Origin: a virus
Reading direction: 5' to 3' (one strand)
Length of the DNA stretch: 49,882 nt
IMG/VR virus record: IMGVR_UViG_3300005826_000013
Span: 1-49,882 of that record
Positions 7,532 to 49,882 of this stretch are shown here, piece by piece; the stretch's first letter is position 1; every line of letters begins with the position of its first letter. The translations under genes were made by a program, and so were the position numbers. The notes below the pieces were generated by a model, which ran no database searches, was not told the origin of the DNA, and saw only the letters and a list, made by a program, of their open reading frames with translations.

Positions 7532-8968
7532 ATGGCCGACGCCGCTTCTCAGCTCGTCGAGTTGCTTCGCGATCTTCAGACGAAGCAAGGCAAGCCTACT
7601 CCCGTCCAGATGTTCAAAGCTATTGACTTCGTCGACACGTATGTTCATCAGTTCAACGACGCTCAGAAGCGTGCCATTCGCGAAGCCTTCCTCGATACGT
7701 GTGGTCTCACGCCTGCCGAACTCAAGAACTTGTTTGAACGAGGCGTCGCCCGCACCAACGAGAAGAAAGAGACCGAGGACGACTTCACAAGCTTGCTTCC
7801 GAAGAAAAACCTGCTTATGACGTATGTTGAGCACACATCGAAGACCGAATGGCCTGCACCATTTCGAGCCTTTAGTTTCCTGACGACTCTTGGTGGATTG
7901 CTCGGTCGCCAAATCTGCGTCGACAGGAACGTTTACCAAGTCTGGCCGAACATGGTAACGCTTCTAGTCGGTCCTACGGGTGAAGGCCGCAAGACGACGT
8001 GCGCGGAGTTTGCCATGAAGATCGCACGCGAAGCGGATGAAGAGAGGTTTTACCAGCTTGGCGAGAAGATTACGTCCGAAGCTGTCCACACAGCACTCGC
8101 TGAGCGTGTCCCTGCGACGGGTATCCTTTATGCACCTGAGCTCTCAACGGTCATCAACAAGAAAGACTACACTCGGTCGCTCATCAACGACCTGACACGT
8201 CTCTGGGACTGTCCGACTCGTCTGCCCGTCCGCACACAATCACGAGGCACCGAAGAGCTCCAAGACGTCGCCGTCAGCTTCCTCGCGTGTTCGAATGAAG
8301 AGTGGTTGCTGAAAGCGATCCCTGAAGACGCCCACAAAGGCGGGTTCTTCGCTCGCATGATCCAGGTCTATCACCCTGGCGTCACGGCACTGTTTTCCGA
8401 CCCGAAGCCTATGGACAAAGCCCGCCACCAACACATTCTTGAGCAGTTGATTCAGACGCGGCGGTGCGTGAAGTCCGAGCTGACTCGGGCAGCGACGCTG
8501 TGGTTCGACAAACGCTACAAGCAGATTCGACGGACCCACTTCGCCGATCCTCGCATGGCCGCGTTCAACGCTCGTCGCCATGACCACTTGTTACGGATCG
8601 GTCTCTTGCTTGCGATCTGTGAGAGTCCGACAGACACCGTTTACATCACCGACTCCCATCTCCAGACCGCCGATGGTCTCGTGTCGTGGGTAGTGAAGTG
8701 GTTGCCGAAAATCTACATGCTGACCGGCTTGACAGAAGTCGGCGAAGACACTCGCCGCATCCTCTATATTTTGATGGCGAACGGAGGTCGCGCTACCCGC
8801 CAATGGCTGTTGTCACAGCTCTATGGACGCATGTCTGCGATGCAGGTCGACGACCGGCTTCGAACGTTGAAGCAAGCAGGATTTGTCAAGGAAGTTGATG
8901 GTTCAATCTTCGAGAAGCCTGCGATATATTACAAGATTCTCAAACACCCAGACGAGGAGACCGTATGA
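7532..8968 (+). CDS. P-loop NTPase, DUF3987/helicase-like (putative replicative helicase or loader)
   Basis: Walker A LLVGPTGEGRKTT about 150 aa in. Layout recalls DUF3987 proteins of phage and island replication modules. No Toprim/primase motif seen. Confidence 0.55.
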   Translation: MADAASQLVELLRDLQTKQGKPTPVQMFKAIDFVDTYVHQFNDAQKRAIREAFLDTCGLTPAELKNLFERGVARTNEKKETEDDFTSLLPKKNLLMTYVEHTSKTEWPAPFRAFSFLTTLGGLLGRQICVDRNVYQVWPNMVTLLVGPTGEGRKTTCAEFAMKIAREADEERFYQLGEKITSEAVHTALAERVPATGILYAPELSTVINKKDYTRSLINDLTRLWDCPTRLPVRTQSRGTEELQDVAVSFLACSNEEWLLKAIPEDAHKGGFFARMIQVYHPGVTALFSDPKPMDKARHQHILEQLIQTRRCVKSELTRAATLWFDKRYKQIRRTHFADPRMAAFNARRHDHLLRIGLLLAICESPTDTVYITDSHLQTADGLVSWVVKWLPKIYMLTGLTEVGEDTRRILYILMANGGRATRQWLLSQLYGRMSAMQVDDRLRTLKQAGFVKEVDGSIFEKPAIYYKILKHPDEETV

Positions 8969-9243
8969 CGAAGAAAGTCTGTCCTATTGAACCGCTGTTC
9001 GAGAACGTCCTGTGTAAACGTGTCGAGATCGAGGAGAAGCGCGTCGGCATGATCATCGTACCGCAGTCGGCTATCGAGAAGCCGATGGAAGCCGTCGTCG
9101 TGTCGGTTGGCGAGTCGGTCAAGAAGCTGAAAGCCGGTGACGCGATCCTGGTCGGACGCTACGCGGGTGCTGAGCTCTCGTTTCAGAACGAGAAGTACCT
9201 CGTGATTCGAGAGGATGAGGTCTTGGGAATCATCAATGGCTGA
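8965..9243 (+). CDS. groES: GroES/Cpn10 co-chaperonin homologue
   Basis: 92 aa. IEPLFENVLCKRVEIEEKRVGMIIVPQSAIEKPMEAVVVSVG..LKAGDAILV..YAG matches the Cpn10 pattern along its full length. Confidence 0.8.
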   Translation: MTKKVCPIEPLFENVLCKRVEIEEKRVGMIIVPQSAIEKPMEAVVVSVGESVKKLKAGDAILVGRYAGAELSFQNEKYLVIREDEVLGIING

Positions 9244-38033: not shown

Positions 38034-38149
38034 CACTTCGCTCCCGGTGTCTTTGGCGGAGCTCCGTTGCTCTTCGGCTTCGCGCCCTTCGGCGGCTTCC
38101 ACTTCGTCGGCAAGCCACCTCGCGGAATCTTCTTAGTACCTCGTTGCAT
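38033..38149 (-). CDS. Basic K/P-rich microprotein (38 aa)
   Basis: Hand-translated: MQRGTKKIPRGGLPTKWKPPKGAKPKSNGAPPKTPGAK. GAGGAGGA lies 7 nt upstream. Overlaps the terL end by 17 nt. Confidence 0.35.
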   Translation of the reverse strand: MQRGTKKIPRGGLPTKWKPPKGAKPKSNGAPPKTPGAK

Positions 38150-39866
38150 AGTGTCTTCCTCCTCGGACACGAGCCGCCTGAACCTTGTTCCAGTTCGCTC
38201 CCGCATACGTTGGATCGCCCGGCATCTTCCAGATGTAGTCCAAATAAGACCAGGCGTCAAGCAAGTCGACAGGGCGGGCACGCGGGAACTTAGCATACTG
38301 AGCCAAGAAATCCGACATACCGGCTTGAAAATGCCACTGGCCTTGGCCTAGAAAAAGCTGCTGAGCTTTGATACGCCGCTTCTTCGCGTTGTCGGAGTTG
38401 TCAGGCTTGAGGTCGGTGATAAGGAGATCGGTCGGGATTTTCCGCTTCAAGTCGTCGCTCAAGAGCTTCCGCATCGATCGCATGTGCTCGAAGAAAAACT
38501 TATACAGTTTCTGCGAGGCGACAGACTCAATCCCGACTTCCTTGAGAAACGGCGCGAACTCCGCCACTGTCACAACGATCTCATCCCACAGCTCGTCCGG
38601 CTCAACACGATCAGCCCACGCCTTCAACAGGAAGCGACAGCCGTCGGGTGCTAACGCCCCGACAGTGATCGCGCTCTGCGCGGCGTCGTCGTTGTCGGAC
38701 CACGCTGGGTCGACTGTCGCCGCGACATGACACTCGAACAACGAGTGCCGGTGCTTCGAGTGGGCTTTGCACTCGCAGTGCAGATCTCCATCGATCGTCC
38801 GAGTGAAATAGTTGATGTATGAGGGCGAAAACCCCGACTGCGACGGATCAAACGGCGCACAAAGGTAGTTACACGAGAACAGAAACGGTCCATACTTCCG
38901 CTCAATGCGTTCGAGCTCCGTGCGAGGATACCGCTCTGGAAAAATCGGCTCAGACGGCACCTCAGCCTTGAAAAGCATCGACGAAGAACCCTCGTAGAGT
39001 GGAGCCTCATAGAGCTGCGTCCACGGGTCGATCTCCAAGGGCATGAATTCGGGCGATGCGATCTCGGGCGAGCAATAGAAGTCTCCGTAACACCCAATCT
39101 TCCATAACAACATCTCACCGGTCGAGACTTCGTTCTCAAGCGCGTACTCGACGACGTCACCGAAGCCCCAAGGCGTCGCAACGAGGTCGATCGTCGAGCT
39201 CGCGTAGTCTTGAAGCGTCGATTCGAGGAGTTTGTAGAGTCCGACGGCCCGATCGACGAGTCTTGGTGAGTCAACGGTCATCTCGTTGACCGGATCATCC
39301 AAGATCACATGGCGAACGTGCTTCGAGGCTTGACCAGAGATAATCGAAGTCGCTTGAATGCTCGGTTGAGGCTCTGGCATAAGACTTTCGTCTCGTCGAA
39401 CCGTGAATCGAGTCTTCGATTTTTCGACGTGATGCCAGTTGACCGGCAAGAGTTCGGGAAAGAGCCACTGAAACTTCTCATTTCCACGAAAAACCCTCTG
39501 AATCGCACCCAACCACGCGACCGAGTTCTCCTCAACCGCCGAAATCACGTTGATCGTCGCGCACGGGTCGTTGATCAGCAGCCAGATCGGCTTGCCGACG
39601 CTCGAATTCGTCGACTTGAAGTGGTTGCGAGGCATGATTCCGCCCTTGAGGCGGGCGCTCGGGAGACCAGAAGCCTCAGCGGAGAGCTGGAGGAAGTTGC
39701 AGAACGGAAGGTGAAGGCGAGGAGTCAAGTCTTTGAAGCCAAGAATGCCTTTGTTGAGGACGTAGAGCGACCGTTTACACATGTCGCGCAGCGTCGCCCA
39801 GAGAAACTCCTGCTCGTCATCGCTCAGACGCGACCACTCAGTGCTTTCTGGCGCTCTCGTCTGCAT
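38133..39866 (-). CDS. terL: Terminase large subunit (577 aa)
   Basis: ATPase half with VRHVILDDPVNE (Walker B). Nuclease half with AATVDPAWSDNDDAAQSAITVGA. Size and position fit. Confidence 0.85.
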   Translation of the reverse strand: MQTRAPESTEWSRLSDDEQEFLWATLRDMCKRSLYVLNKGILGFKDLTPRLHLPFCNFLQLSAEASGLPSARLKGGIMPRNHFKSTNSSVGKPIWLLINDPCATINVISAVEENSVAWLGAIQRVFRGNEKFQWLFPELLPVNWHHVEKSKTRFTVRRDESLMPEPQPSIQATSIISGQASKHVRHVILDDPVNEMTVDSPRLVDRAVGLYKLLESTLQDYASSTIDLVATPWGFGDVVEYALENEVSTGEMLLWKIGCYGDFYCSPEIASPEFMPLEIDPWTQLYEAPLYEGSSSMLFKAEVPSEPIFPERYPRTELERIERKYGPFLFSCNYLCAPFDPSQSGFSPSYINYFTRTIDGDLHCECKAHSKHRHSLFECHVAATVDPAWSDNDDAAQSAITVGALAPDGCRFLLKAWADRVEPDELWDEIVVTVAEFAPFLKEVGIESVASQKLYKFFFEHMRSMRKLLSDDLKRKIPTDLLITDLKPDNSDNAKKRRIKAQQLFLGQGQWHFQAGMSDFLAQYAKFPRARPVDLLDAWSYLDYIWKMPGDPTYAGANWNKVQAARVRGGRHYATRY

Positions 39867-40329
39867 CTATGAGTTTCCGAAGGAGCCCGTTGAACTCGTT
39901 ACACGCGTCGATCAGCGGGTTGATGTGCGTCGAAGGCAGCGAGATGTGAAGCTCCGGTGGCTTCTCGGACTGAGACTGCCGAAGCTTGATTCCGAGCTCC
40001 AGCAACTGCTTCGAGGCGACTGCCGACGCCTTACCACTCAACACGTCGTCGACAAGCTTCCGTGCAGCTTTCGTCGCGCCCTGCTCGATGATCTTCAGCG
40101 GGTCGCCTTCGAGCGCATCGACTTCGGCAGCGAGAGCTTTCAGCTCTTCGGCTCGCTCGGGATTCCACTGCTCTACCAGCAGGATCGTGTCGGGCTCCAG
40201 CGCTAGCTCTTCGGCTTCGAGCGCTGAGATCGCGAGGTGCTTCGCCGCGTCTAGCGGCTCGTCACCGTCGGCTAGTCTGCGGGCTAGCGCTTCGCGGGTT
40301 GCGCTCGACCGGACTTCGTCTAGAGACAT
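39838..40329 (-). CDS. terS: Terminase small subunit candidate (163 aa)
   Basis: First gene of the late arm. Overlaps the terL start by 29 nt. Helical and acidic. Positional call. Confidence 0.45.
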   Translation of the reverse strand: MSLDEVRSSATREALARRLADGDEPLDAAKHLAISALEAEELALEPDTILLVEQWNPERAEELKALAAEVDALEGDPLKIIEQGATKAARKLVDDVLSGKASAVASKQLLELGIKLRQSQSEKPPELHISLPSTHINPLIDACNEFNGLLRKLIDADESARKH

Positions 40330-40369
40330 TCTTAGACACGACGCTACTACAACATATTGTAGTAGTCAA
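40330..40369 (-). promoter_or_regulatory. Conserved promoter/operator element, copy A (upstream of terS)
   Basis: Minus strand reads TTGACtactacaatatgttgtagTAGCGTcgtgtctaagaATG. Contains the 9+9 bp palindrome CTACTACAA-cata-TTGTAGTAG (40344..40365). Confidence 0.55.
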
Positions 40370-40413: not shown

Positions 40414-40587
40414 ATGAACAACTCTATGAAGTGTCGGTTTTGTGGCCGGACTGCGCCCGCTCGGGAGACCCGCGAGCTGCGAAGCGGTGTCACGAAGATC
40501 ACGCAGACTCGGCCCGAGGGCTGGAAGTCAATCGAGCTGGAGCTCTGGTGTGGAAGCTGCGACCCGAGAGAGCGGAAGGTGGGCTGA
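40414..40587 (+). CDS. Small zinc-ribbon protein (57 aa)
   Basis: Hand-translated: MNNSMKCRFCGR...ELWCGSCDPRERKVG (CxxC...CxxC). GAGGAA RBS. Confidence 0.45.
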   Translation: MNNSMKCRFCGRTAPARETRELRSGVTKITQTRPEGWKSIELELWCGSCDPRERKVG

Positions 40588-40856
40588 TGGTGGGTTGGGG
40601 AGCTCCCGAAGGCATGGCTCTGCTGCTAGTTCCGCTCCGCAAGCTATTTCTCCAGATTCCCGCAAATGAGCGCTGTCTCTTAGAGATCAACTACGATCTT
40701 GATCTGCTGCGATGCTTGACGTGCGGTCGAGTCTACGCGACGAGGCAAGAGTTTGAAGACGACCAGCTCGGTCTTGTCGCCTCGCGCGTCGCTCGGTGTG
40801 GGTGGTTTGATACTTTTGGTAGGTGGAGCTTGGGTGAAAGTGCTCAGATTTTGTAG
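40587..40856 (+). CDS. Hypothetical protein (89 aa)
   Basis: ATG in a TGATG overlap with the previous ORF (frame of ORF 40299..40856). Contains CLTCG. Confidence 0.4.
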   Translation: MVGWGAPEGMALLLVPLRKLFLQIPANERCLLEINYDLDLLRCLTCGRVYATRQEFEDDQLGLVASRVARCGWFDTFGRWSLGESAQIL

Positions 40857-40921
40857 AAATTTTCGAGAGGTCACCCTTCGGGTCCCGTCGACGGGGGTGC
40901 CCCGCGGCGGGCTGGTACGGG

Positions 40922-41013
40922 CTGTGGAAAACCTGTTGAAAACCTGTGGAAAACTCAGCCGCTCTGGCCGAGCGAGTTATCCACAAGCTGTTGAAAACCT
41001 GTGGATAACTCAG
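40922..41013. promoter_or_regulatory. DnaA-box array with 11-bp phasing (candidate origin element)
   Basis: Perfect TTATCCACA (40977..40985) and TGTGGATAA (41000..41008). TGTGGAAAA at 40923 and 40945. TGTTGAAAA at 40934 and 40989. 26-nt repeat 40933..40958 / 40988..41013 (25/26). Confidence 0.6.
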
Positions 41014-41022
41014 GCTCAGCGT

Positions 41023-41358
41023 TTACACGCGCCGAGGCTCCACGAGCTCGCGCGCGATCCCGGCGTCGTCATACGCCCGCATCGGCGGGTCGAGCTCTGG
41101 CGTCGACCAGACGAACGCCGCGAGCGCTTCGCCGAGCGCGGCTCGCGCGGCAACGGTCGTCCGCTCGGAGTACCGTCGTGCAGGAGCGAGCGCCAGCTCG
41201 CGCAGCGCGACGCCGCAGCCGTAGCCGCCAGGCGACGACTGTGTAAACACAGTTCCCTCCGCGTCCTGGCCGCGCAGCACGCGCTTTAGCGCGACGAGCG
41301 AGCGGCCCGAGTTCTCATCGACCGCGAAGCGAATTAAGCGAGCCATGTTTTTCAGCAT
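41023..41358 (-). CDS. Orphan GC-rich gene (111 aa), unknown function
   Basis: ATG MLKNMARLIRF after GGAGAAAAG. Hand counts give about 65-77% GC per 60-nt line, against about 53-57% elsewhere. Confidence 0.5.
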   Translation of the reverse strand: MLKNMARLIRFAVDENSGRSLVALKRVLRGQDAEGTVFTQSSPGGYGCGVALRELALAPARRYSERTTVAARAALGEALAAFVWSTPELDPPMRAYDDAGIARELVEPRRV

Positions 41359-41493
41359 TTTGCTTTTCTCCTCGATGTAATTTAATTGCAAGCAGCGTGC
41401 CACATGGCGGGTGCTGGCGGTATAAACACCTCTTCTTGACCCGACATGCTGTGAAATGGCGGTCGAGGTCAAAAATAACTCTTTTCGCCTCAA

Positions 41494-41914
41494 CGAGTTA
41501 AGTCAACATTCCGCCATCTTATGTGTATCCCCGAAAAAAACTCGTAAAACGCCCCTGTCACCAAAATAGGACAGTATGTAAAAATTACACTCTCGCTCAA
41601 ATTTAAACGCCTCGACGAAAAAGTGGCACCAAAAAATGTAACTCTGACAAAATCTGTAATACTAATGGTATATTCCTATAAATATATGTATCTATATGAT
41701 AATAAACGACTTATTTTATCGTTAAAACATTTTACCGCCGTCCGACCGGGAGCTTCCAGCGACTTTTTCCACAACCTCACAAAACATGGCGGAATCTTCC
41801 ACCAACCCACTGATTCCAAACGACTTATTTTCAACCCCACCCGCCATCTACCACCATCCCCCACCAACTACGGCATAACTATTGCAATACTCCGCCATGG
41901 AGGTACAAACACAA
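41494..41914. promoter_or_regulatory. AT-rich control region with iteron-like CCGCCAT repeats (early promoters and/or origin unwinding region)
   Basis: 41641..41700 is 14/60 GC. CCGCCAT at 41511, 41841, 41892 (+) and 41404, 41456, 41786 (-). AAACGACTTATTTT at 41704 and 41818. Confidence 0.55.
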
Positions 41915-43084
41915 ATGCCCAAACCTAAGACCGCCAAGTACAACGTCGCATGCTCGCTATGCGGCGACACCATCACCAAAGACGCGACCTTCGTCTGGTG
42001 GAACTTCACCAGCGAAAAAGCCGCAGGCCGAAGCGGAATGGTTCACCCCCAGTGCTACAGCTCGAAAGAAGGAACCAAGCCGGCGAAGCCCGCGAAGCCC
42101 GCACCCACCACGCCACTATTCGACAAAGCCCTTGAAGACCGCATCACCAACTTGGAAACCGCCATCGAAACTCTCGACTCGACGATCAAAGACAAACTCG
42201 ACGCGAGCGACACACTCGCCGACCTCGCAACCGACCTTGAAGAACTCCGCGCCAAAGTCGCCGAAGCTAGCGCCCACAACTCTCTCACCATCGAGATCAA
42301 AAACCCCAAAGCGGCTACGCCGCTAACGATCGAAACTGCCCACAACAAGCTCCCCGAGCTCCTCACGACGCTAACAACCCTCCATCAAGCGTACGTCTTC
42401 GGACCTGCTGGCGCAGGCAAAACTACAATGGCTCGCCAGGCCGCCGAAGCGCTCGGAGTCGACTTCTATTATGTCCAGCTCGGAGGAGTCCCGCCTTGGG
42501 TGCTCACAGGATTTCCGACCGCCAACGGGACCGTTCTGGAGACCGACTTCCGCCGCGCCTACGTCAACGGCGGACTCGTCTTGCTCGACGAGTTGGACAA
42601 CACCCAGGCCGCCACCGCAGTCACGTTGAACGGCGCTCTGGAGAACGGTCGCATCGCCTTTCCCGACGGCCAGCGCGACCGTCACGCAGATTGTTACGTC
42701 GTCGGCGCGGGTAACACCGCTATGACCGGAGCCGACGAGACCTACAGCGCCCGCACAGCGCAAGACGGCGCGTTCCGCGAGCGCTTCGCCTTCATTGAGA
42801 TCCTCCATGACGCCGCGCTCGAAGAGAAACTCACGTACTCCCAAGGCGCGGACCCGACGCTAGCTCACGCGTGGCTCGATCGCGTCCGCGAGATCCGAGC
42901 CGACCTCGCTACAGCAGCCCCCCACATCCTAGTCACCCCGCGAGCCTCGATCCGAGGCGCTCAAATCCTCGCCGACCACCCCGAGACCAAATTTAGCTGG
43001 CTCGTCGAAGCCCTCATCCTCAAAGGCGCAGCCCCACAAGGTAGCGACATCCGAGGTCGCCTAGAAGGCAACGGTCTGCTATGA
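41915..43084 (+). CDS. AAA+ ATPase of the MoxR/CobS (AAA_5) type with an N-terminal zinc ribbon and coiled coil
   Basis: GGAGGT RBS before ATG 41915. CSLCGD...HPQCY. Walker A FGPAGAGKTT. Walker B LVLLDELD. Sensor region VVGAGNT...FRERF. Confidence 0.8.
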   Translation: MPKPKTAKYNVACSLCGDTITKDATFVWWNFTSEKAAGRSGMVHPQCYSSKEGTKPAKPAKPAPTTPLFDKALEDRITNLETAIETLDSTIKDKLDASDTLADLATDLEELRAKVAEASAHNSLTIEIKNPKAATPLTIETAHNKLPELLTTLTTLHQAYVFGPAGAGKTTMARQAAEALGVDFYYVQLGGVPPWVLTGFPTANGTVLETDFRRAYVNGGLVLLDELDNTQAATAVTLNGALENGRIAFPDGQRDRHADCYVVGAGNTAMTGADETYSARTAQDGAFRERFAFIEILHDAALEEKLTYSQGADPTLAHAWLDRVREIRADLATAAPHILVTPRASIRGAQILADHPETKFSWLVEALILKGAAPQGSDIRGRLEGNGLL

Positions 43085-44064
43085 CCGACTTCCTCAGCCC
43101 CCTAGACCCCGAGCACCGGCCACTAGCCCGCCGTGACGACTCCAATCCTCGCACCCACCATCCGATCCTAGGGTTTCCCTACCTCACGAAGCCCAACGTT
43201 TACACCTGGCGACAAGACTACCGATCAGCCCACGACATGATGCGCGCTTTCAGCGACTTCGACAACTCCGAGACGTACCACAACGACTACACCCCTGGAG
43301 AGATCTCCGGTTTCCTTTATGCACGCGATCTCATGCTCAAAGGCTGGCCCGAAGGAGCCTCGCGCTTGCTAAGACAGCATAAGCTACTTCTAAGCTACAC
43401 GACGCAGCTTGTCGAAGCCCCCAAGGCCGTCACCGACGTATACGGCGACTTTTACGACATCGGATCGTTCATGGCTGGCCAGCCTGACCACTGGCTCCGC
43501 TTCGAGCGCGAGACCAAACGCGGCTTCTCAAAGAAAGGTCCGATCCGCCTTGTCATTCAGCACGCGGTCAGCACAGGAGCCTCCACCGATCGTCTCATCC
43601 AACGAGGCGCACTAGCATTAACCCTCGCGACGCTCTTCGAGCGTGCCGGTCGACCTACTGAAATCGTTAGCGCCGACGCTGGCCGCTGGCACTTCGAAGG
43701 CAACCAACAAAACCTCTATTGGACGGTCTTAGTGAAACCCATGAGTCGCCCCCTCAACGTCTCTTCAATGGCCTTCGCCATCGCCCACGAGTGCATGGAA
43801 CGGACGTTCTACCTCAGCACAGGCCGCAGCCTCGCCGCCACTATCTCAGAATCTTTTGGAGAACGTGCGAAAGATGGCACCCTCATAACTTTCACAAACG
43901 GTTGTGGAATGCCACTCAACGCCCCCGTAGGTTCGCCAACCGACACGATCACCCTTGACTATCTCCCCGACCACGTAAGCTTAGGAAAGCCCGAAGCAAC
44001 CACCAACTATCTGATTCGAAGCCTCGAAGCCCAGGGCGTAGAAATCTCTCGGAGGAAACAATGA
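43081..44064 (+). CDS. Partner protein of the AAA+ ATPase (327 aa), possibly a degenerate vWA/CobT-like fold
   Basis: ATGA-coupled to the ATPase. IRLVIQHAVSTGAS sits where a vWA MIDAS DxSxS would be, with Asp replaced by His. Weak inference. Confidence 0.5.
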   Translation: MTDFLSPLDPEHRPLARRDDSNPRTHHPILGFPYLTKPNVYTWRQDYRSAHDMMRAFSDFDNSETYHNDYTPGEISGFLYARDLMLKGWPEGASRLLRQHKLLLSYTTQLVEAPKAVTDVYGDFYDIGSFMAGQPDHWLRFERETKRGFSKKGPIRLVIQHAVSTGASTDRLIQRGALALTLATLFERAGRPTEIVSADAGRWHFEGNQQNLYWTVLVKPMSRPLNVSSMAFAIAHECMERTFYLSTGRSLAATISESFGERAKDGTLITFTNGCGMPLNAPVGSPTDTITLDYLPDHVSLGKPEATTNYLIRSLEAQGVEISRRKQ

Positions 44065-44957
44065 CCCGTAAATGTAAACATGGTAACACTCTAGAACCTT
44101 ACTCTGGCAATGGCTGGGGATGTATCTCGGAGCAACAAGCCCCGTCACTCGCTACCTGGTGGCCCGGACCTGACGGGCTGTGCGGGTGCGGATTTTGCGA
44201 CGAACACGCTCCAGCAGACCCAGCTACCGCGCAGCTCCCCGACAGCGACAGCGACAGCGACTACACCAATCAACAAACTTGGGCTTCCATGGCCTACGAC
44301 GTACTACGCGAAAGCCTACTCCCCGACGCGCCCGAGCGCGCGATCATCACCTACGGCTTTCCCAGTGTCGCTAACGCCGCCCGAGGTGAGACTTGGCTCA
44401 CCGAGGCAATGGGAGCCGAAGCGAGCGGCGCGTTGAAGAAAGACTCCAAAGCCGTAATCTTCATTCACCCCTCGCAATGGGACGATCCTTCAACCGTCCT
44501 CATGGTCCTCACCCACGAGATGATCCACGCGTGCGGAGCCATGAACCACGGCGCGCCCTACGCCGCCGTCGCCAAGGCTATCGGCCTAGGCGAATCGAAG
44601 CCGGGAATCTTTGACGTCGTCGAGCAGAGCCTAGCCGCTCAGTTCCTCGAAATTATCGACATGCTCCCGAGCTTCCCGAGCTCCGCCATGACGCCGCACG
44701 ATACGCCAATCCCGCACGGCGGAGGAGCACCCTCGCCGACGTTCGCCGAGCCTACAGACTTTTGTCATGGTGGAACCAAGATTGACCCCAACAACCCACC
44801 CTCACCCCCCAAACCACAGAAATGCCGCCAGCGCTTGCACGAATGCCGCTGCGGTCAGAAGATTCGAGCCGCCCGAGACGAAGCAAACGCAACGTGTGAC
44901 CTATGTCACACGGCTTACAAACTCAAACCCCGCAAGACCAAAGGAGCAACGACATGA
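44061..44957 (+). CDS. SprT-like zinc metalloprotease-domain protein with Cys clusters (298 aa)
   Basis: VLTHEMIHACG (HExxH). N-terminal CKHG..C..CGCGFC and C-terminal CRQRLHECRCG...CDLCH zinc-finger-like clusters. ATGA-coupled. Confidence 0.7.
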   Translation: MTRKCKHGNTLEPYSGNGWGCISEQQAPSLATWWPGPDGLCGCGFCDEHAPADPATAQLPDSDSDSDYTNQQTWASMAYDVLRESLLPDAPERAIITYGFPSVANAARGETWLTEAMGAEASGALKKDSKAVIFIHPSQWDDPSTVLMVLTHEMIHACGAMNHGAPYAAVAKAIGLGESKPGIFDVVEQSLAAQFLEIIDMLPSFPSSAMTPHDTPIPHGGGAPSPTFAEPTDFCHGGTKIDPNNPPSPPKPQKCRQRLHECRCGQKIRAARDEANATCDLCHTAYKLKPRKTKGATT

Positions 44958-45208
44958 GCAGCCCCTTCAGAGCCACCAATTTTATGACCCCGCACATCTT
45001 AGATCAGACGCAACACCCCAACGGCCTATGGACCGAGCTTTCAACAGACGACGGATCCTGGAGTCGAGCAGTCGACGGTCTCGGCCCTATCTACGGCGTT
45101 ACAGTCCTCAGGAGCAACGGATCCGATCCTGGACTATCGAAGAGCTTCCGCGACAAGACCGAGGCTCTCGCATACGTCCAAACTATCCGCCAAGGAGCGT
45201 ATCCATGA
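44954..45208 (+). CDS. Hypothetical protein (84 aa)
   Basis: ATG at 44954 sits in an ATGA overlap (frame of ORF 44903..45208). Confidence 0.5.
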   Translation: MSSPFRATNFMTPHILDQTQHPNGLWTELSTDDGSWSRAVDGLGPIYGVTVLRSNGSDPGLSKSFRDKTEALAYVQTIRQGAYP

Positions 45209-45600: not shown

Positions 45601-46143
45601 ATGACCGACCCGATCGTTTACACGCGGGGCGCGTCGACCGACCACTGGGAGACGCCCCCGCAGCTCTTCGAGCTCGCGTCGCGGGCCTTCGCAGAGCCGA
45701 CCGGCTTCGCCCTCGATGCAGCGGCGAACGCTGCGAACACCCTCGCGCCTCGATGGCTCGGCCCTGGCGGGCTCTCGCCCGACGCTCTCAGCTTGGATGA
45801 TTGGCCGCTGGCCGAAGGCCAAGCCGCATGGATGAACCCGCCGTACAGCAAACTCGCAGGCCCGCTAGCTCGCTGGGTCGAACGAGCGGATGAAGTCGCA
45901 AGCGAAGCGAGCCGCCGTCGCGTCGTCTGCCTGCTCAAAGCCGACACCTCGACGAAGTGGTTCCGCTTCGCCGCTGCACGAGCATGGCGGATCGTCTTCC
46001 TGCAACCCCGCGTGCGCCACCTGCTCGCTGGTCACGAGCAAGCAACGCCGCCCTGGGGCTCACTCCTCGCTGTCTTCGATGCTGCGCAGCGAGGCGAAGC
46101 TAGAGCGATCGTCACAGTCGCCTACTGGAGAAAACGCCGATGA
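45601..46143 (+). CDS. dam: Phage-type DNA N6-adenine methyltransferase (small Dam family)
   Basis: DHWETPPQLFE, FALDAAANA and WMNPPYS (NPPY catalytic motif) in a ~180-aa protein match the small phage Dam family layout. Confidence 0.8.
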   Translation: MTDPIVYTRGASTDHWETPPQLFELASRAFAEPTGFALDAAANAANTLAPRWLGPGGLSPDALSLDDWPLAEGQAAWMNPPYSKLAGPLARWVERADEVASEASRRRVVCLLKADTSTKWFRFAAARAWRIVFLQPRVRHLLAGHEQATPPWGSLLAVFDAAQRGEARAIVTVAYWRKRR

Positions 46144-49504: not shown

Positions 49505-49785
49505 GCGAGAAGAGAACGGACGCGGAGCTGGTGAGGGAGTGGGCGAGGGATCTTGATACAGGTTGTCGCCACCGGCGAGGTGGACACAATTCCGACCTCC
49601 TCCGCCGACTCGCGGCGCAGAGCGAGGAGCGAGACCAGCTGTTGAAAGCTACCTCGAAGTACCTCGTCGACATCGGGCCTTGTGACGAGGCAACACAGCC
49701 CGACGAGACTCCACTCTGTGGCGACGAGACCTGCTCATACTGCGAACTTGCGGTTTTTGTTCAGGAGGCTCTCGATGGCGAGTGA
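49501..49785 (+). CDS. Hypothetical protein (94 aa)
   Basis: GTGA-coupled GTG (frame of ORF 49330..49785). CGDETCSYC. Confidence 0.5.
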   Translation: MSEKRTDAELVREWARDLDTGCRHRRGGHNSDLLRRLAAQSEERDQLLKATSKYLVDIGPCDEATQPDETPLCGDETCSYCELAVFVQEALDGE

Positions 49786-49882
49786 GGGGATGAGCGAAGG
49801 ACGACAGGAAGTCATTCGGCATTACGCCGATAAGGGCGCTGAGCATATCGAGCTAACGCCACTCACGGCAAACCATCACCTG
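49763..49882. repeat. Terminal direct repeat, copy 2 (identical to 1-120)
   Basis: Same comparison. The unique genome length is therefore 49,762 bp. Confidence 0.95.
49775..49882 (+). CDS. 5' part of the same gene as 13..213 (duplicate created by the terminal overlap)
   Basis: Sequence is identical to 13..120. Truncated by the window end. Confidence 0.5.
   Translation, partial: MASEGMSEGRQEVIRHYADKGAEHIELTPLTANHHL

Follow-up and report, generated by a model that had tools for sequence, protein, structure and literature searches.

Why would a phage that carries its own replication genes also carry a tight array of boxes for the bacterial initiator DnaA? The question is raised by an uncultured, virulent-type phage whose genome is a 49,762-bp circle, with bases 1-120 of the window (the whole 49,882-nt stretch of DNA that was analysed) equal to bases 49763-49882. 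Its own replication genes encode PolA, a DUF3987 primase/helicase, Sak4 and an exonuclease. Early genes are read rightward and late genes leftward, both from a single hub, which is the main non-coding control region of the phage and contains the array (Table 1). The leftward reading takes in an ORFan gene, the terminase and the structural genes, and an AAA_5 ATPase gene forms the right border of the hub. The array sits in a convergent gap, 66 nt past a plus-strand stop codon (40856) and 10 nt from a minus-strand stop codon (41023), and lies approximately 600 bp from the putative small-terminase gene. An assembly artefact is excluded by the independent JGI contig L132 (961 bp), whose sequence over the array is 100% identical.

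Architecture of the array and its likely ligand

Six helically phased DnaA-box elements occupy the 92 bp between 40922 and 41013, and four of them fit TTWTNCACA. All coordinates and sequences given for the array in a preliminary description proved correct on re-reading the stretch. The 9-mer boxes of the left triplet (40923-31, 40934-42 and 40945-53) are separated by 2-bp gaps, which produces the 11-bp phasing, and read TTTTCCACA, TTTTCAACA and TTTTCCACA on the minus strand. The outer two, earlier classed as one-mismatch boxes (TGTGGAAAA, equal to TTTTCCACA), in fact fit TTWTNCACA and are of the mioC/R5 type, which is a good DnaA binder (PMC5835720). The middle box is a 1-off variant that also occurs in other phage arrays and, as TTATCAACA, in T5.

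Table 1. Features of the array and of the surrounding hub, in window coordinates
Feature	Position	Strand	Remarks
Putative small-terminase gene	39838-40329	-	diverges from the two small plus-strand ORFs
Two small ORFs	40414..40856	+	57 and 89 aa; converge on the array
G4..C4 mini-palindrome	40892-40903		beside GGCGGGCTGGTACGGG
GGCGGGCTGGTACGGG	40906..40921	.	non-coding motif; directly adjoins the array; kept in relatives
Left triplet	40922..40954	+	head-to-tail 11-mers CTGTGGAAAAC (40922-32), CTGTTGAAAAC (40933-43), CTGTGGAAAAC (40944-54), then TCAG; 11-bp phasing
GC-rich spacer	40959-76		18 nt; between left triplet and right module
Short hairpin in spacer	40959..40975	-	DNA fold; 6-pair stem, 5-nt loop
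Head-to-head (right) module	40974..41011	.	TTATCCACA 40977-85, TGTTGAAAA 40989-97, TGTGGATAA 41000-08
ORFan gene	41023..41358	-	111 aa; ~70% GC
AT-rich non-coding block	41359..41881	.	between divergent ORFan gene and early operon
ATGGCGG x6, two triplets	41404+, 41456+, 41511-; 41786+, 41841-, 41892-		flank the AT core
Promoter-like site	41725-41696	-	within the AT core
Distal consensus box TTTTCCACA	41765..41773	+	inverted relative to left triplet
AAA_5 (MoxR/CobS-like) ATPase gene	41882..43084	+	first gene of early/replication module

On the minus strand, the hairpin of the spacer runs into the T-rich repeats that make up the left triplet, and together these form a weak terminator-like site (40975-40959) for the ORFan gene. 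The right module reads TTATCCACA and AG, followed by the 11-mers CTGTTGAAAAC (40988-98) and CTGTGGATAAC (40999-41009) and then TCAG, with gaps of 3 bp between TTATCCACA and TGTTGAAAA and of 2 bp between TGTTGAAAA and TGTGGATAA. One perfect box lies in each arm of an inverted repeat that is perfect over 12 nt (GAGTTATCCACA / TGTGGATAACTC, 14 nt between arms). The corresponding hairpin appears in the minimum-free-energy and centroid DNA folds (z = -2.67), and its 12-bp perfect stem holds a whole DnaA box. The 26-nt duplication reported between 40933-58 and 40988-41013 was likewise borne out, at 25 of 26 identical positions. A copy of CGTTTACAC does begin at 41020 as described, but it was rejected as a part of the array, the motif being scattered genome-wide on both strands.

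The box cluster is real and far beyond chance. With up to one mismatch, TTATCCACA occurs at 11 sites against 3.7 expected, a number reached by none of 100 shuffles, and the 11-mer CTGTKGAWAAC occurs at 9 against 1.6 expected (0/100 shuffles). TTWTNCACA is found five times in the whole genome (1.5 expected), and all five sites (40923, 40945, 40977, 41000 and 41765) fall within the 850-bp hub. From the last of these, the distal box, the AT core is approximately 45 bp to the left and the first early gene approximately 115 bp to the right. It is the sole DnaA-like site (up to two mismatches) in the AT-rich block, and no weak boxes linking the array to the AT core were found.

The boxes of the array share 11-13 nt, flanks included, with the E. 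coli oriC sites R1 (CTGTGGATAAC) and R4 (GAGTTATCCACAG). The element CTGTGGATAAC equals R1 and GAGTTATCCACA(G) equals R4, two of the four consensus boxes matching R4 over 12-13 nt with their flanks. The CC..CT flanks seen at R1 and R4 are also found on 194 non-seed boxes of the other viral arrays listed. In the E. coli oriC sequence, low-affinity sites, reportedly assigned as such by Rozgaja et al. in 2011, follow one another at 11-bp steps. A layout for head-to-tail oligomerisation is present in the phage array, as three boxes at 11-bp steps and two in the right module. Same-orientation, closely spaced boxes bind DnaA cooperatively, which the 11-bp head-to-tail phasing fits (PMC5716108). In bacterial genomes, the tandem pattern is strongly enriched beside dnaA, which it adjoins at 34 of 120 loci, and it is a mark of genuine oriCs, among them textbook-like ones of Thermus and Deinococcus. 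Searches for a phage-encoded protein with DnaA domain IV were negative, both with phmmer (the window and the 120 viral loci listed) and with Pfam (approximately 35 ORFs), and host DnaA is therefore the likely ligand. The match to R1 and R4 with their flanks, the adjacency to bacterial dnaA and the lack of a detectable phage binder all uphold the original identification of the sites as DnaA boxes. Judged from its sequence, the array is predicted to bind DnaA, and it is very probably the means by which the phage recruits this host protein.

The hub as a candidate origin

The preliminary description proposed a DnaA-dependent, plasmid/P1-like origin or, as a fallback that is still a candidate, a DnaA-titrating or regulated site. 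Of the three outcomes that it gave as refuting, two, concerning the skew and the relatives, went against the origin, both in weak tests. In favour of this are an AT-rich block bracketed by DnaA boxes and six copies of ATGGCGG, but GC skew, relatives, flanks, DnaA-trios and GATC sites speak against it. Among 40-bp windows, the genome's highest AT content falls in the AT core (~41640-41740), where GC content is 0.20 at 41650-41700. An AT-rich block does lie near the array, but not at the ~500 bp first given, as its edge is ~350 bp and its core ~630-700 bp away. Between the two stands a real gene (41023-41358, minus strand), the ORFan, whose GC contents by codon position are 0.73/0.54/0.80 (GC3 0.80). 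Neither word-indexed nor exhaustive HMMER protein searches returned homologues, no Pfam or PHROG match was obtained, and the AlphaFold model (pLDDT 47) is unusable. The array and the distal box, seven sites in all, bracket the ORFan gene and the block in which the genome is most AT-rich, and the distal box itself separates the AT core, with its promoter-like sites, from the early operon. The ATGGCGG copies are spaced 51-56 bp apart and span 41404..41898; the genome has 14 copies, six of which fall within 552 bp (Poisson P ~2e-8), and they are presumably a second, phage-specific set of iterons.

Against an origin of the oriC type stand the GC-rich flanks, the intervening ORFan, the lack of DnaA-trios, the wrong skew polarity and the absence of the boxes from relatives. 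Neither an AT-rich unwinding element nor DnaA-trios adjoin a correctly oriented box, both flanks of the array being GC-rich, and no trio periodicity follows the box at 41765. The oriC layout of box, GC cluster, trios and AT-rich sequence was found at no box of the array, and in oriC-type unwinding the spacing from box to unwinding element tolerates almost no change (PMC5716108). The cumulative GC skew, suggested earlier as a check, reaches its minimum at ~46.8-48.8 kb, away from the hub, a weak test for a phage. Locally, the skew at the hub switches from plus to minus (~41.2-41.6 kb), a polarity that is terminus-like and not origin-like. That the phage has PolA, a DUF3987 primase/helicase, Sak4 and an exonuclease of its own also counts against an origin served by DnaA. 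GATC is absent from both the array and the AT block, the five hub sites being at 40497-40701 and 41056. The array likewise has no IHF site, and the only hub match to WATCARNNNNTTR is at 41803. No Rep-like match was obtained in the ~35 ORFs scanned, the adjacent gene being the 111-aa ORFan. Family searches assigned no function to several small ORFs near the array and gave no match for the two on the plus strand; neither Rfam families nor tRNAs were detected in the hub or the window, and the hub has no nucleotide-level similarity to GenBank phages.

Comparison with relatives, also suggested earlier and also a weak test, covered the nearest ones available (TerL 57-67% identical), and their syntenic hubs do not contain the array. 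Relatives that are closest by protein (TerL 74-76% identical) are represented by contigs that stop before the syntenic spot. In place of the boxes, the relatives' hubs contain other, differing and phage-specific repeats at the equivalent spot. These hubs have an extremely AT-rich core with its own phased repeats; in L122 the repeats lie inverted on both flanks of the core, and L123 shows them on one side. The only non-coding motif kept in relatives is GGCGGGCTGGTACGGG, identical at 16/16 positions in L127 and at 12/12 in L123, where it is collinear with CGGGGGTGCCCC; the remaining hub is not alignable. An initial equation of the DnaA array with the relatives' iterons by position was revised. 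The repeats of L122 have a better equivalent in the ATGGCGG repeats flanking the AT core, and the position of the array matches the repeats of L123 and L127 beside the conserved 16-mer. The relatives' small hub proteins gave no significant Pfam match as repressors or initiators.

Compared with bacterial oriCs, the array has the identical extended box (CTGTGGATAAC, GAGTTATCCACAG), same-orientation boxes with 2-bp gaps and opposed sets. In contrast to them, it lacks an unwinding element, GC cluster and DnaA-trios between its GC-rich flanks, and offers only 6+1 sites; the phage, moreover, brings its own replisome, and its skew is not origin-like. The oriCs of Thermus and Deinococcus, for example, continue from their boxes into a GC cluster plus DnaA-trios, which the phage array does not.

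The layout resembles plasmid origins that combine iterons with DnaA sites. In iteron plasmids, helically phased iterons are accompanied by DnaA sites that can bound an A+T region from either side (PMC5043065), and the hub has in common with P1 oriR, R6K ori-gamma, RK2 oriV, pSC101 and F an A+T region, presumably element-specific repeats and DnaA sites. Unlike these, it has no recognisable Rep gene, and its array lacks both the GATC cluster of P1 and an IHF site. Its ATGGCGG repeats are 51-56 bp apart rather than ~22 bp, and its main DnaA cluster lies at least ~350 bp from the AT block, behind a gene. A second likeness to R6K concerns the 'A site', which Masai and Arai in 1995 are said to have described as a DnaA-dependent ABC-primosome hairpin. 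As single-stranded DNA, the 12-bp inverted repeat of the array would give a hairpin with a DnaA box in its stem; nothing, however, points to single-stranded DNA or to priming by host DnaB/DnaC, and the phage has its own primase/helicase.

The best reading, a tentative one, is that the array serves as a DnaA-binding accessory of a hybrid origin and control hub of the iteron-plasmid type. It would act as a high-affinity assembly site for host DnaA, with binding nucleated by the four consensus boxes and the two TGTTGAAAA sites, 2-3 bp from strong boxes, filled cooperatively. Two DnaA trimers could result, 55 bp (five helical turns) apart and on one face of the helix. The hub would then combine an AT-rich opening region, element-specific iterons and bounding DnaA sites; that the ORFs scanned include no recognisable initiator gene of the phage itself is counted in favour of this reading. 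In hypothetical further steps, the hub would be bent or looped by DnaA, which would also assist in opening or priming the AT block for the helicase-primase and polymerase of the phage; the part of the ATGGCGG repeats in such an origin is equally hypothetical.

Comparable arrays and alternative roles

Similar arrays are common in phages and little studied. The 11-bp tandem pattern occurs in at least 120 viral contigs of IMG/VR and in none for the reversed control, and among the contigs listed, extra boxes follow at 11-12, 22-23 and 32-34 bp with CC...CTT flanks. None of these listed contigs is related to the present phage. The same architecture is found in 151 records of cultured phages, including T7-like terminal repeats and Microviridae. 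Comparable arrays lie inside the direct terminal repeat of a T7-like Berlinvirus, in the long terminal repeat or injection-stop region of T5-like phages and, in Arthrobacter phage records, behind an HNH gene and ~50 nt short of the right end. A Siara match in a repeat predicted by PhageTerm was not counted, its printed sequence lacking clean boxes. Weighing against an origin role, some of these phages, such as Berlinvirus and T5, replicate independently of DnaA or have their origins elsewhere. Across the class, the surroundings of arrays are enriched in AT by only ~5%, with no one-sided signal of an unwinding element, which points the same way. Extreme AT windows within 150 bp of arrays are 2.8-fold enriched, a value confounded by array composition and intergenic location and not used here. 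As sequence anatomy, with its architecture, statistics and comparative distribution directly observed, the array is a solid finding and ordinary in kind; its functional reading is a proposal.

The first alternative to a hybrid origin, on the unlikely side, is a transcription roadblock or insulator, in which a DnaA-coated array would halt convergent transcripts in a gap without a canonical terminator. Leftward transcripts from the AT-rich hub through the ORFan would be kept out of the minus-strand terminase/structural operon and, in one variant, multiplying genomes would out-titrate DnaA, lifting the block and tying late expression to replication. Consistent with this, the array fills the convergent gap to within 66 and 10 nt of the two stops, the sole terminator-like site is weak and inside it, and the ORFan, terminase and structural genes are all leftward. 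The distal box, with the promoter-like sites of the AT core on one side and the early operon on the other, is also suitably placed. Complexes of DnaA with its boxes are said to block RNA polymerase, as in the work of Schaefer and Messer on asnC. The mioC promoter is repressed by DnaA in proportion to box quality (PMC5835720). Across the class, however, arrays are not enriched at convergent junctions (17% vs 14% background) but at divergent ones (26% vs 12.5%) and at locus edges, and six phased sites with a head-to-head module exceed what a roadblock would need.

A function at genome ends is rather improbable. Here, the physical ends of the virion DNA (terminal repeat, pac or cos) would lie in the hub beside the terminase genes, and the array would anchor or pause the entering DNA, a role proposed in T5, or would assist terminase as an architectural cofactor in the way that IHF does at lambda cosB. 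The arrays near mapped or record ends in Berlinvirus, Arthrobacter and T5-like phages argue for such a role. So too do the viral matches listed, of which 25/120 lie within 300 bp of a locus end and 32/120 have no ORF between array and edge, although enrichment at contig ends may merely reflect assembly breaks at repeats. The array adjoins the sole non-coding motif kept in relatives, close to the putative small-terminase gene, and the early-right/late-left layout would fit a linear genome with its ends in the hub. The assembly is circular, however, and does not itself give the virion ends. TerL searches returned no relatives in IMG/VR and only two remote matches among cultured phages, so that the packaging type cannot be inferred from cultured relatives. 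The T5 model is itself only a proposal. The T5 injection-stop region resembles the array in being non-coding, in pairing consensus with variant (TTATCAACA-type) boxes, in its inverted repeats and in having no proven origin role. It differs in that T5 has 3-bp spaced pairs, with eight boxes in four inverted-repeat arms of a long terminal repeat, whereas the phage array has 2-bp gaps and a triplet plus a head-to-head triplet on a circular assembly.

Manipulation of the host DnaA pool is very unlikely. The array would then be a datA-like sink, or its head-to-head module a DARS-like site for regeneration of ATP-DnaA, and the target would be host initiation rather than phage DNA. Four consensus and two near-consensus boxes do give a datA-like content, with room for many DnaA molecules, datA having two consensus and four one-misfit boxes and needing an IHF site for function (PMC5835720). 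Yet datA extends over ~1 kb, and the array is 92 bp with no IHF consensus. In DARS, box I is head-to-head with box II, and II is head-to-tail with III (PMC6868365). The right module has this polarity, 5'-TTATCCACA ... TGTGGATAA ... TGTGGATAA-like-3' in the E. coli DARS1 core (MG1655), and its head-to-head composite recurs in five unrelated viral contigs; in addition, the ColE1 plasmid carries a DARS (PMC5835720). The gaps of the module, 3 and 2 bp, nevertheless differ from the 5 and 3 bp of DARS1, and its strong boxes are the outer ones, with a weak middle TGTTGAAAA where box II of DARS is consensus. Furthermore, one infecting genome cannot titrate DnaA, and to stop new host initiations late in a lytic cycle would bring little obvious gain.

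Most unlikely of all is that the repeats serve, as iterons or operators, a DNA-binding protein of the phage that has escaped recognition and mimics the specificity of DnaA or competes with it, such as the ORFan, a small zinc-ribbon protein or the small terminase. The phage-specific repeats of relatives at the equivalent spot, the neighbouring small ORFs without assigned function and the DnaA DNA-binding domains encoded by some phages, including HTVC010P-type pelagiphages (PMC8477408), would suit it, but no DnaA-domain-IV-like ORF was detected here or near the 120 other arrays listed, and one extended consensus is common to unrelated phages (33-67% GC) and bacterial oriCs, which argues for one universal ligand.

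DnaA-box arrays as possible docking sites

On mobile DNA, DnaA boxes are familiar from the origins of plasmids and prophages, and one preprint treats those of T5. A broader proposal, put forward as speculative, is that phased, oriC-grade DnaA-box arrays are widespread docking sites for a host factor in virulent phages, forming an essentially uncharacterised class that unrelated lineages carry in terminal repeats and in long non-coding hubs, with the present one acting as a hybrid origin or a DnaA gate. As a hybrid origin, the seven boxes and the phage-specific iterons would constitute a DnaA-assisted origin on a phage carrying its own replisome. As a gate, DnaA would stand between early leftward transcription and the late operon, and the gate would open once replicating genomes out-titrate DnaA, providing a replication-coupled late switch. 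The array is an unusually clean example of its kind, and the phage that carries it, uncultured and of the virulent type, encodes a polymerase and a helicase-primase of its own; the seven boxes present a compact, mutable target. If DnaA binds such arrays, phages of many lineages would exploit one universally conserved host protein, and DnaA, if the proposal is true, would be a general host factor for phages, beyond its role as a cofactor of plasmid and prophage origins.

Organization of the genome and its control hub

The window carries an exact 120-bp terminal overlap (1-120 = 49763-49882) and is thus a circularly closed assembly of 49,762 unique bp, in which the coordinate origin is arbitrary. 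The packaging and structural module, which includes an SU10-type portal in relatives, occupies the minus strand from 40329 down to ~10.5 kb. The early/replication module extends on the plus strand from 41882 across the circle junction to ~10.4 kb, and encodes an AAA_5 ATPase, DUF7192, a Dam-type methylase, a PD-(D/E)XK exonuclease, Sak4, PolA and a DUF3987 primase/helicase. Between them lies a 1.55 kb hub composed, in order, of a palindrome, two small plus-strand ORFs, the array of DnaA boxes, a minus-strand ORFan gene and an AT-rich block. The palindrome sits where a putative small-terminase gene and the small plus-strand ORFs diverge, in a gap of 84 bp; two promoter-like sites overlap with it, and it resembles an operator. 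The ORFan gene returned no homologue in word-indexed or exhaustive protein searches.

Features of the hub and neighboring sequence
Feature	Position	Strand	Description
TerL	38133-39866	-	packaging/structural module
Palindrome	40344-40365		perfect, 9-bp arms; CTACTACAA-CATA-TTGTAGTAG
Conserved 16-mer	40906-40921		GGCGGGCTGGTACGGG
Left triplet	40922-40954		head-to-tail 11-mers CTGTGGAAAAC, CTGTTGAAAAC, CTGTGGAAAAC; then TCAG
Spacer			18 nt, GC-rich, after left triplet and TCAG; small hairpin possible
Perfect box	40977		TTATCCACA; then AG
Right pair	40988-41009		CTGTTGAAAAC + CTGTGGATAAC; then TCAG
ORFan gene	41023-41358	-	clearly coding by GC3
AT-rich block			520 bp, right of ORFan gene; genome's most AT-rich window
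Fifth consensus box	41765		inside AT-rich block
AAACGACTTATTTT	41704-41717, 41818-41831		114 bp apart, straddling the fifth box
AAACGACTTATTTT, partial inverted copy	41472-41485

Elsewhere, a GroES/Cpn10-like co-chaperonin is encoded at 8965-9243 (Pfam PF00166, E = 2.7e-19). The motif CGTTTACAC, allowing ≤1 mismatch, is dispersed and over-represented across the whole window (32 copies against 6.4 expected; 0/100 shuffles), mainly within genes and on both strands, at positions including 1398, 5137, 9012, 11697, 15525, 18329, 22125, 25197, 25458, 35232, 39772, 41020, 43197, 45615 and 46585. A Dam-family methylase gene is located at 45601-46143.

The array and its likely ligand

The sequence and layout of the array match exactly those of the preliminary description, save that the box TGTGGAAAA, scored there as a mismatch, is the reverse complement of TTTTCCACA, a mioC/R5-type consensus box that is reported to bind well (PMC5835720). 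The two perfect boxes form the arms of a perfect 12-nt inverted repeat, GAGTTATCCACA / TGTGGATAACTC, which as single-stranded DNA folds better than shuffles (z = -2.67). Genome-wide, boxes with ≤1 mismatch occur at 11 sites against 3.7 expected, a number reached by 0/100 shuffles; for the 11-mer, under the same tolerance, 9 sites compare with an expected 1.6. All five copies of the TTWTNCACA consensus fall within 850 bp, four of them in the array. The array region is identical in an independent JGI contig, and a chance origin of the array is excluded.

The boxes agree with R1 (CTGTGGATAAC) and R4 (GAGTTATCCACAG) of Escherichia coli oriC over 11-13 nt, flanks included. As a search pattern for the class, the degenerate tandem TGTKGAWAACCTGTKGAWAAC was found in at least 120 IMG/VR contigs of 33-67% GC and its reversed control in none; extra boxes in these contigs lie at 11-12, 22-23 and 32-34 bp, nearly all in the same orientation, and share CC...CTT flanks. 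Bacterial genomes gave at least 120 matches, and dnaA adjoins 34 of the 120 listed, including Thermus and Deinococcus origins whose layout of boxes, GC cluster, trio and AT is complete. A DnaA-like protein is encoded in none of the 120 viral loci listed, which are thus not stray bacterial origins. Some pelagiphages encode a DnaA DNA-binding domain (PMC8477408); none was found in this phage by phmmer over the window or Pfam on ~35 ORFs, and a phage protein is accordingly a very improbable ligand. Taken with the oriC match and the distribution of the tandem pattern, this makes host DnaA very probably the ligand, and the designation of these elements as DnaA boxes is, at the level of sequence comparison, strongly supported.

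The hub as a candidate origin

The proposed DnaA-dependent, plasmid/P1-like origin is a candidate reading. The hub recalls an iteron-type, DnaA-assisted origin (PMC5043065) in that seven DnaA sites bracket an AT core and presumed element-specific repeats lie on either side of it, and relatives possess an extremely AT-rich core with phased repeats of their own. Six of the 14 genomic copies of ATGGCGG lie in the AT-rich intergenic block (41404-41898; Poisson P ~2e-8) as triplets (+,+,- and +,-,-), one on each side of the core, with copies 51-56 bp apart, and probably form the binding array of an initiator or regulator specific to the phage. The left triplet borders on the ORFan gene. No initiator gene was recognizable among ~35 ORFs scanned, and the AT-rich block, scanned with ≤2 mismatches, holds no DnaA site besides the fifth box.

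Unlike oriC, where changes in box-to-DUE spacing are hardly tolerated (PMC5716108), the array is flanked by GC-rich DNA and separated from the AT block by a gene, and DnaA-trios are absent after every box of the array and hub. GC skew, a weak test for a phage, also speaks against an oriC-like origin, with terminus-like polarity at the hub and the global minimum of the cumulative curve ~6-8 kb away. In the first early genes (41600-45200), the coding strand has a strongly negative GC skew (-0.13 to -0.36) and a positive AT skew, a pattern missing from the remaining plus-strand genes (47 kb to 3 kb); an abrupt, local change of skew results at the hub. DnaA boxes are absent from hubs of relatives at 57-67% TerL identity. 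An origin is plausible as a hypothesis, and the hub fails on the oriC-type features.

The only non-coding hub sequence conserved in relatives (TerL 63-67%) is GGCGGGCTGGTACGGG (L127, 184-199; L123, 3950-3961), which directly adjoins the array in the window and may be a cis-acting site, either a pac, cos or terminal-repeat boundary or a terminator. A G4..C4 mini-palindrome lies beside it. Relatives carry other repeats next to this motif. The phased repeats of their hubs are of the GGCGACAT type, at 10-bp steps, in L122 (2676-3003), where they flank a ~60-bp core of almost pure A+T on both sides in inverted orientation, and in L123 (3540-3800), where they were seen on one side only of the AT core; L127 (48-160) has a 16-bp GCTACGT-type array beside the 16-mer. 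Between members of the family, one type of repeat appears to have been exchanged for another. The best explanation, offered tentatively, is that DnaA would assemble on the array as a platform, with the array serving as accessory to a hybrid origin/control hub.

Phage arrays and possible alternative functions

DnaA boxes in 11-bp-phased tandem are widespread and not confined to related phages, as drawn from IMG/VR loci (L001-L120, L138-L148) and GenBank phages; with three tandem boxes as BLAST query, matches were obtained in 151 records of cultured phages. Among the IMG/VR arrays listed, the gaps that house them are long (median 413 bp), ~1/4 lie at locus edges, and divergent junctions are enriched ~2-fold. 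Convergent junctions are not, which counts against a transcription roadblock or replication-timed gate, a rather unlikely reading. AT enrichment around IMG/VR arrays is only ~5%, without a one-sided signal. A genome-end function, itself unlikely, would accord with several array locations: a T7-like Berlinvirus has one within its terminal repeat, in records of Arthrobacter phages they stand ~50 nt short of the right end, and T5-like phages have them in the long terminal repeat, for which an injection-stop role has been put forward in a preprint. A match in phage Siara, inside a PhageTerm-predicted repeat, was left out for want of clean boxes in the stretch inspected. In many marine T7-like contigs, a G-rich tract (ccgggggaggg) follows 10-15 nt past the last box.

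Titration or DARS-like action is improbable. The right module, TTATCCACA-N3-TGTTGAAAA-N2-TGTGGATAA, shares box polarity with the E. coli DARS1 core (TTATCCACt-N5-TGTGGATAA-N3-TGTGtATtA; PMC6868365), but the boxes are more closely spaced and the weak one stands in the middle; the composite is also present in five unrelated viral contigs. The array contains neither an IHF site, as datA-type titration would call for, nor a GATC cluster, which argues against datA- or P1-type membership.

Arrays also occur in intergenic regions of Microviridae and where long non-coding gaps separate early genes. Given such varied settings, no single role fits the class, and in T7- and T5-like phages the arrays are unlikely to serve as origins alone. 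DnaA-box clusters on mobile elements are already known, and the array described here is a further member; the breadth of the class is an unexpected by-product worth pursuing.
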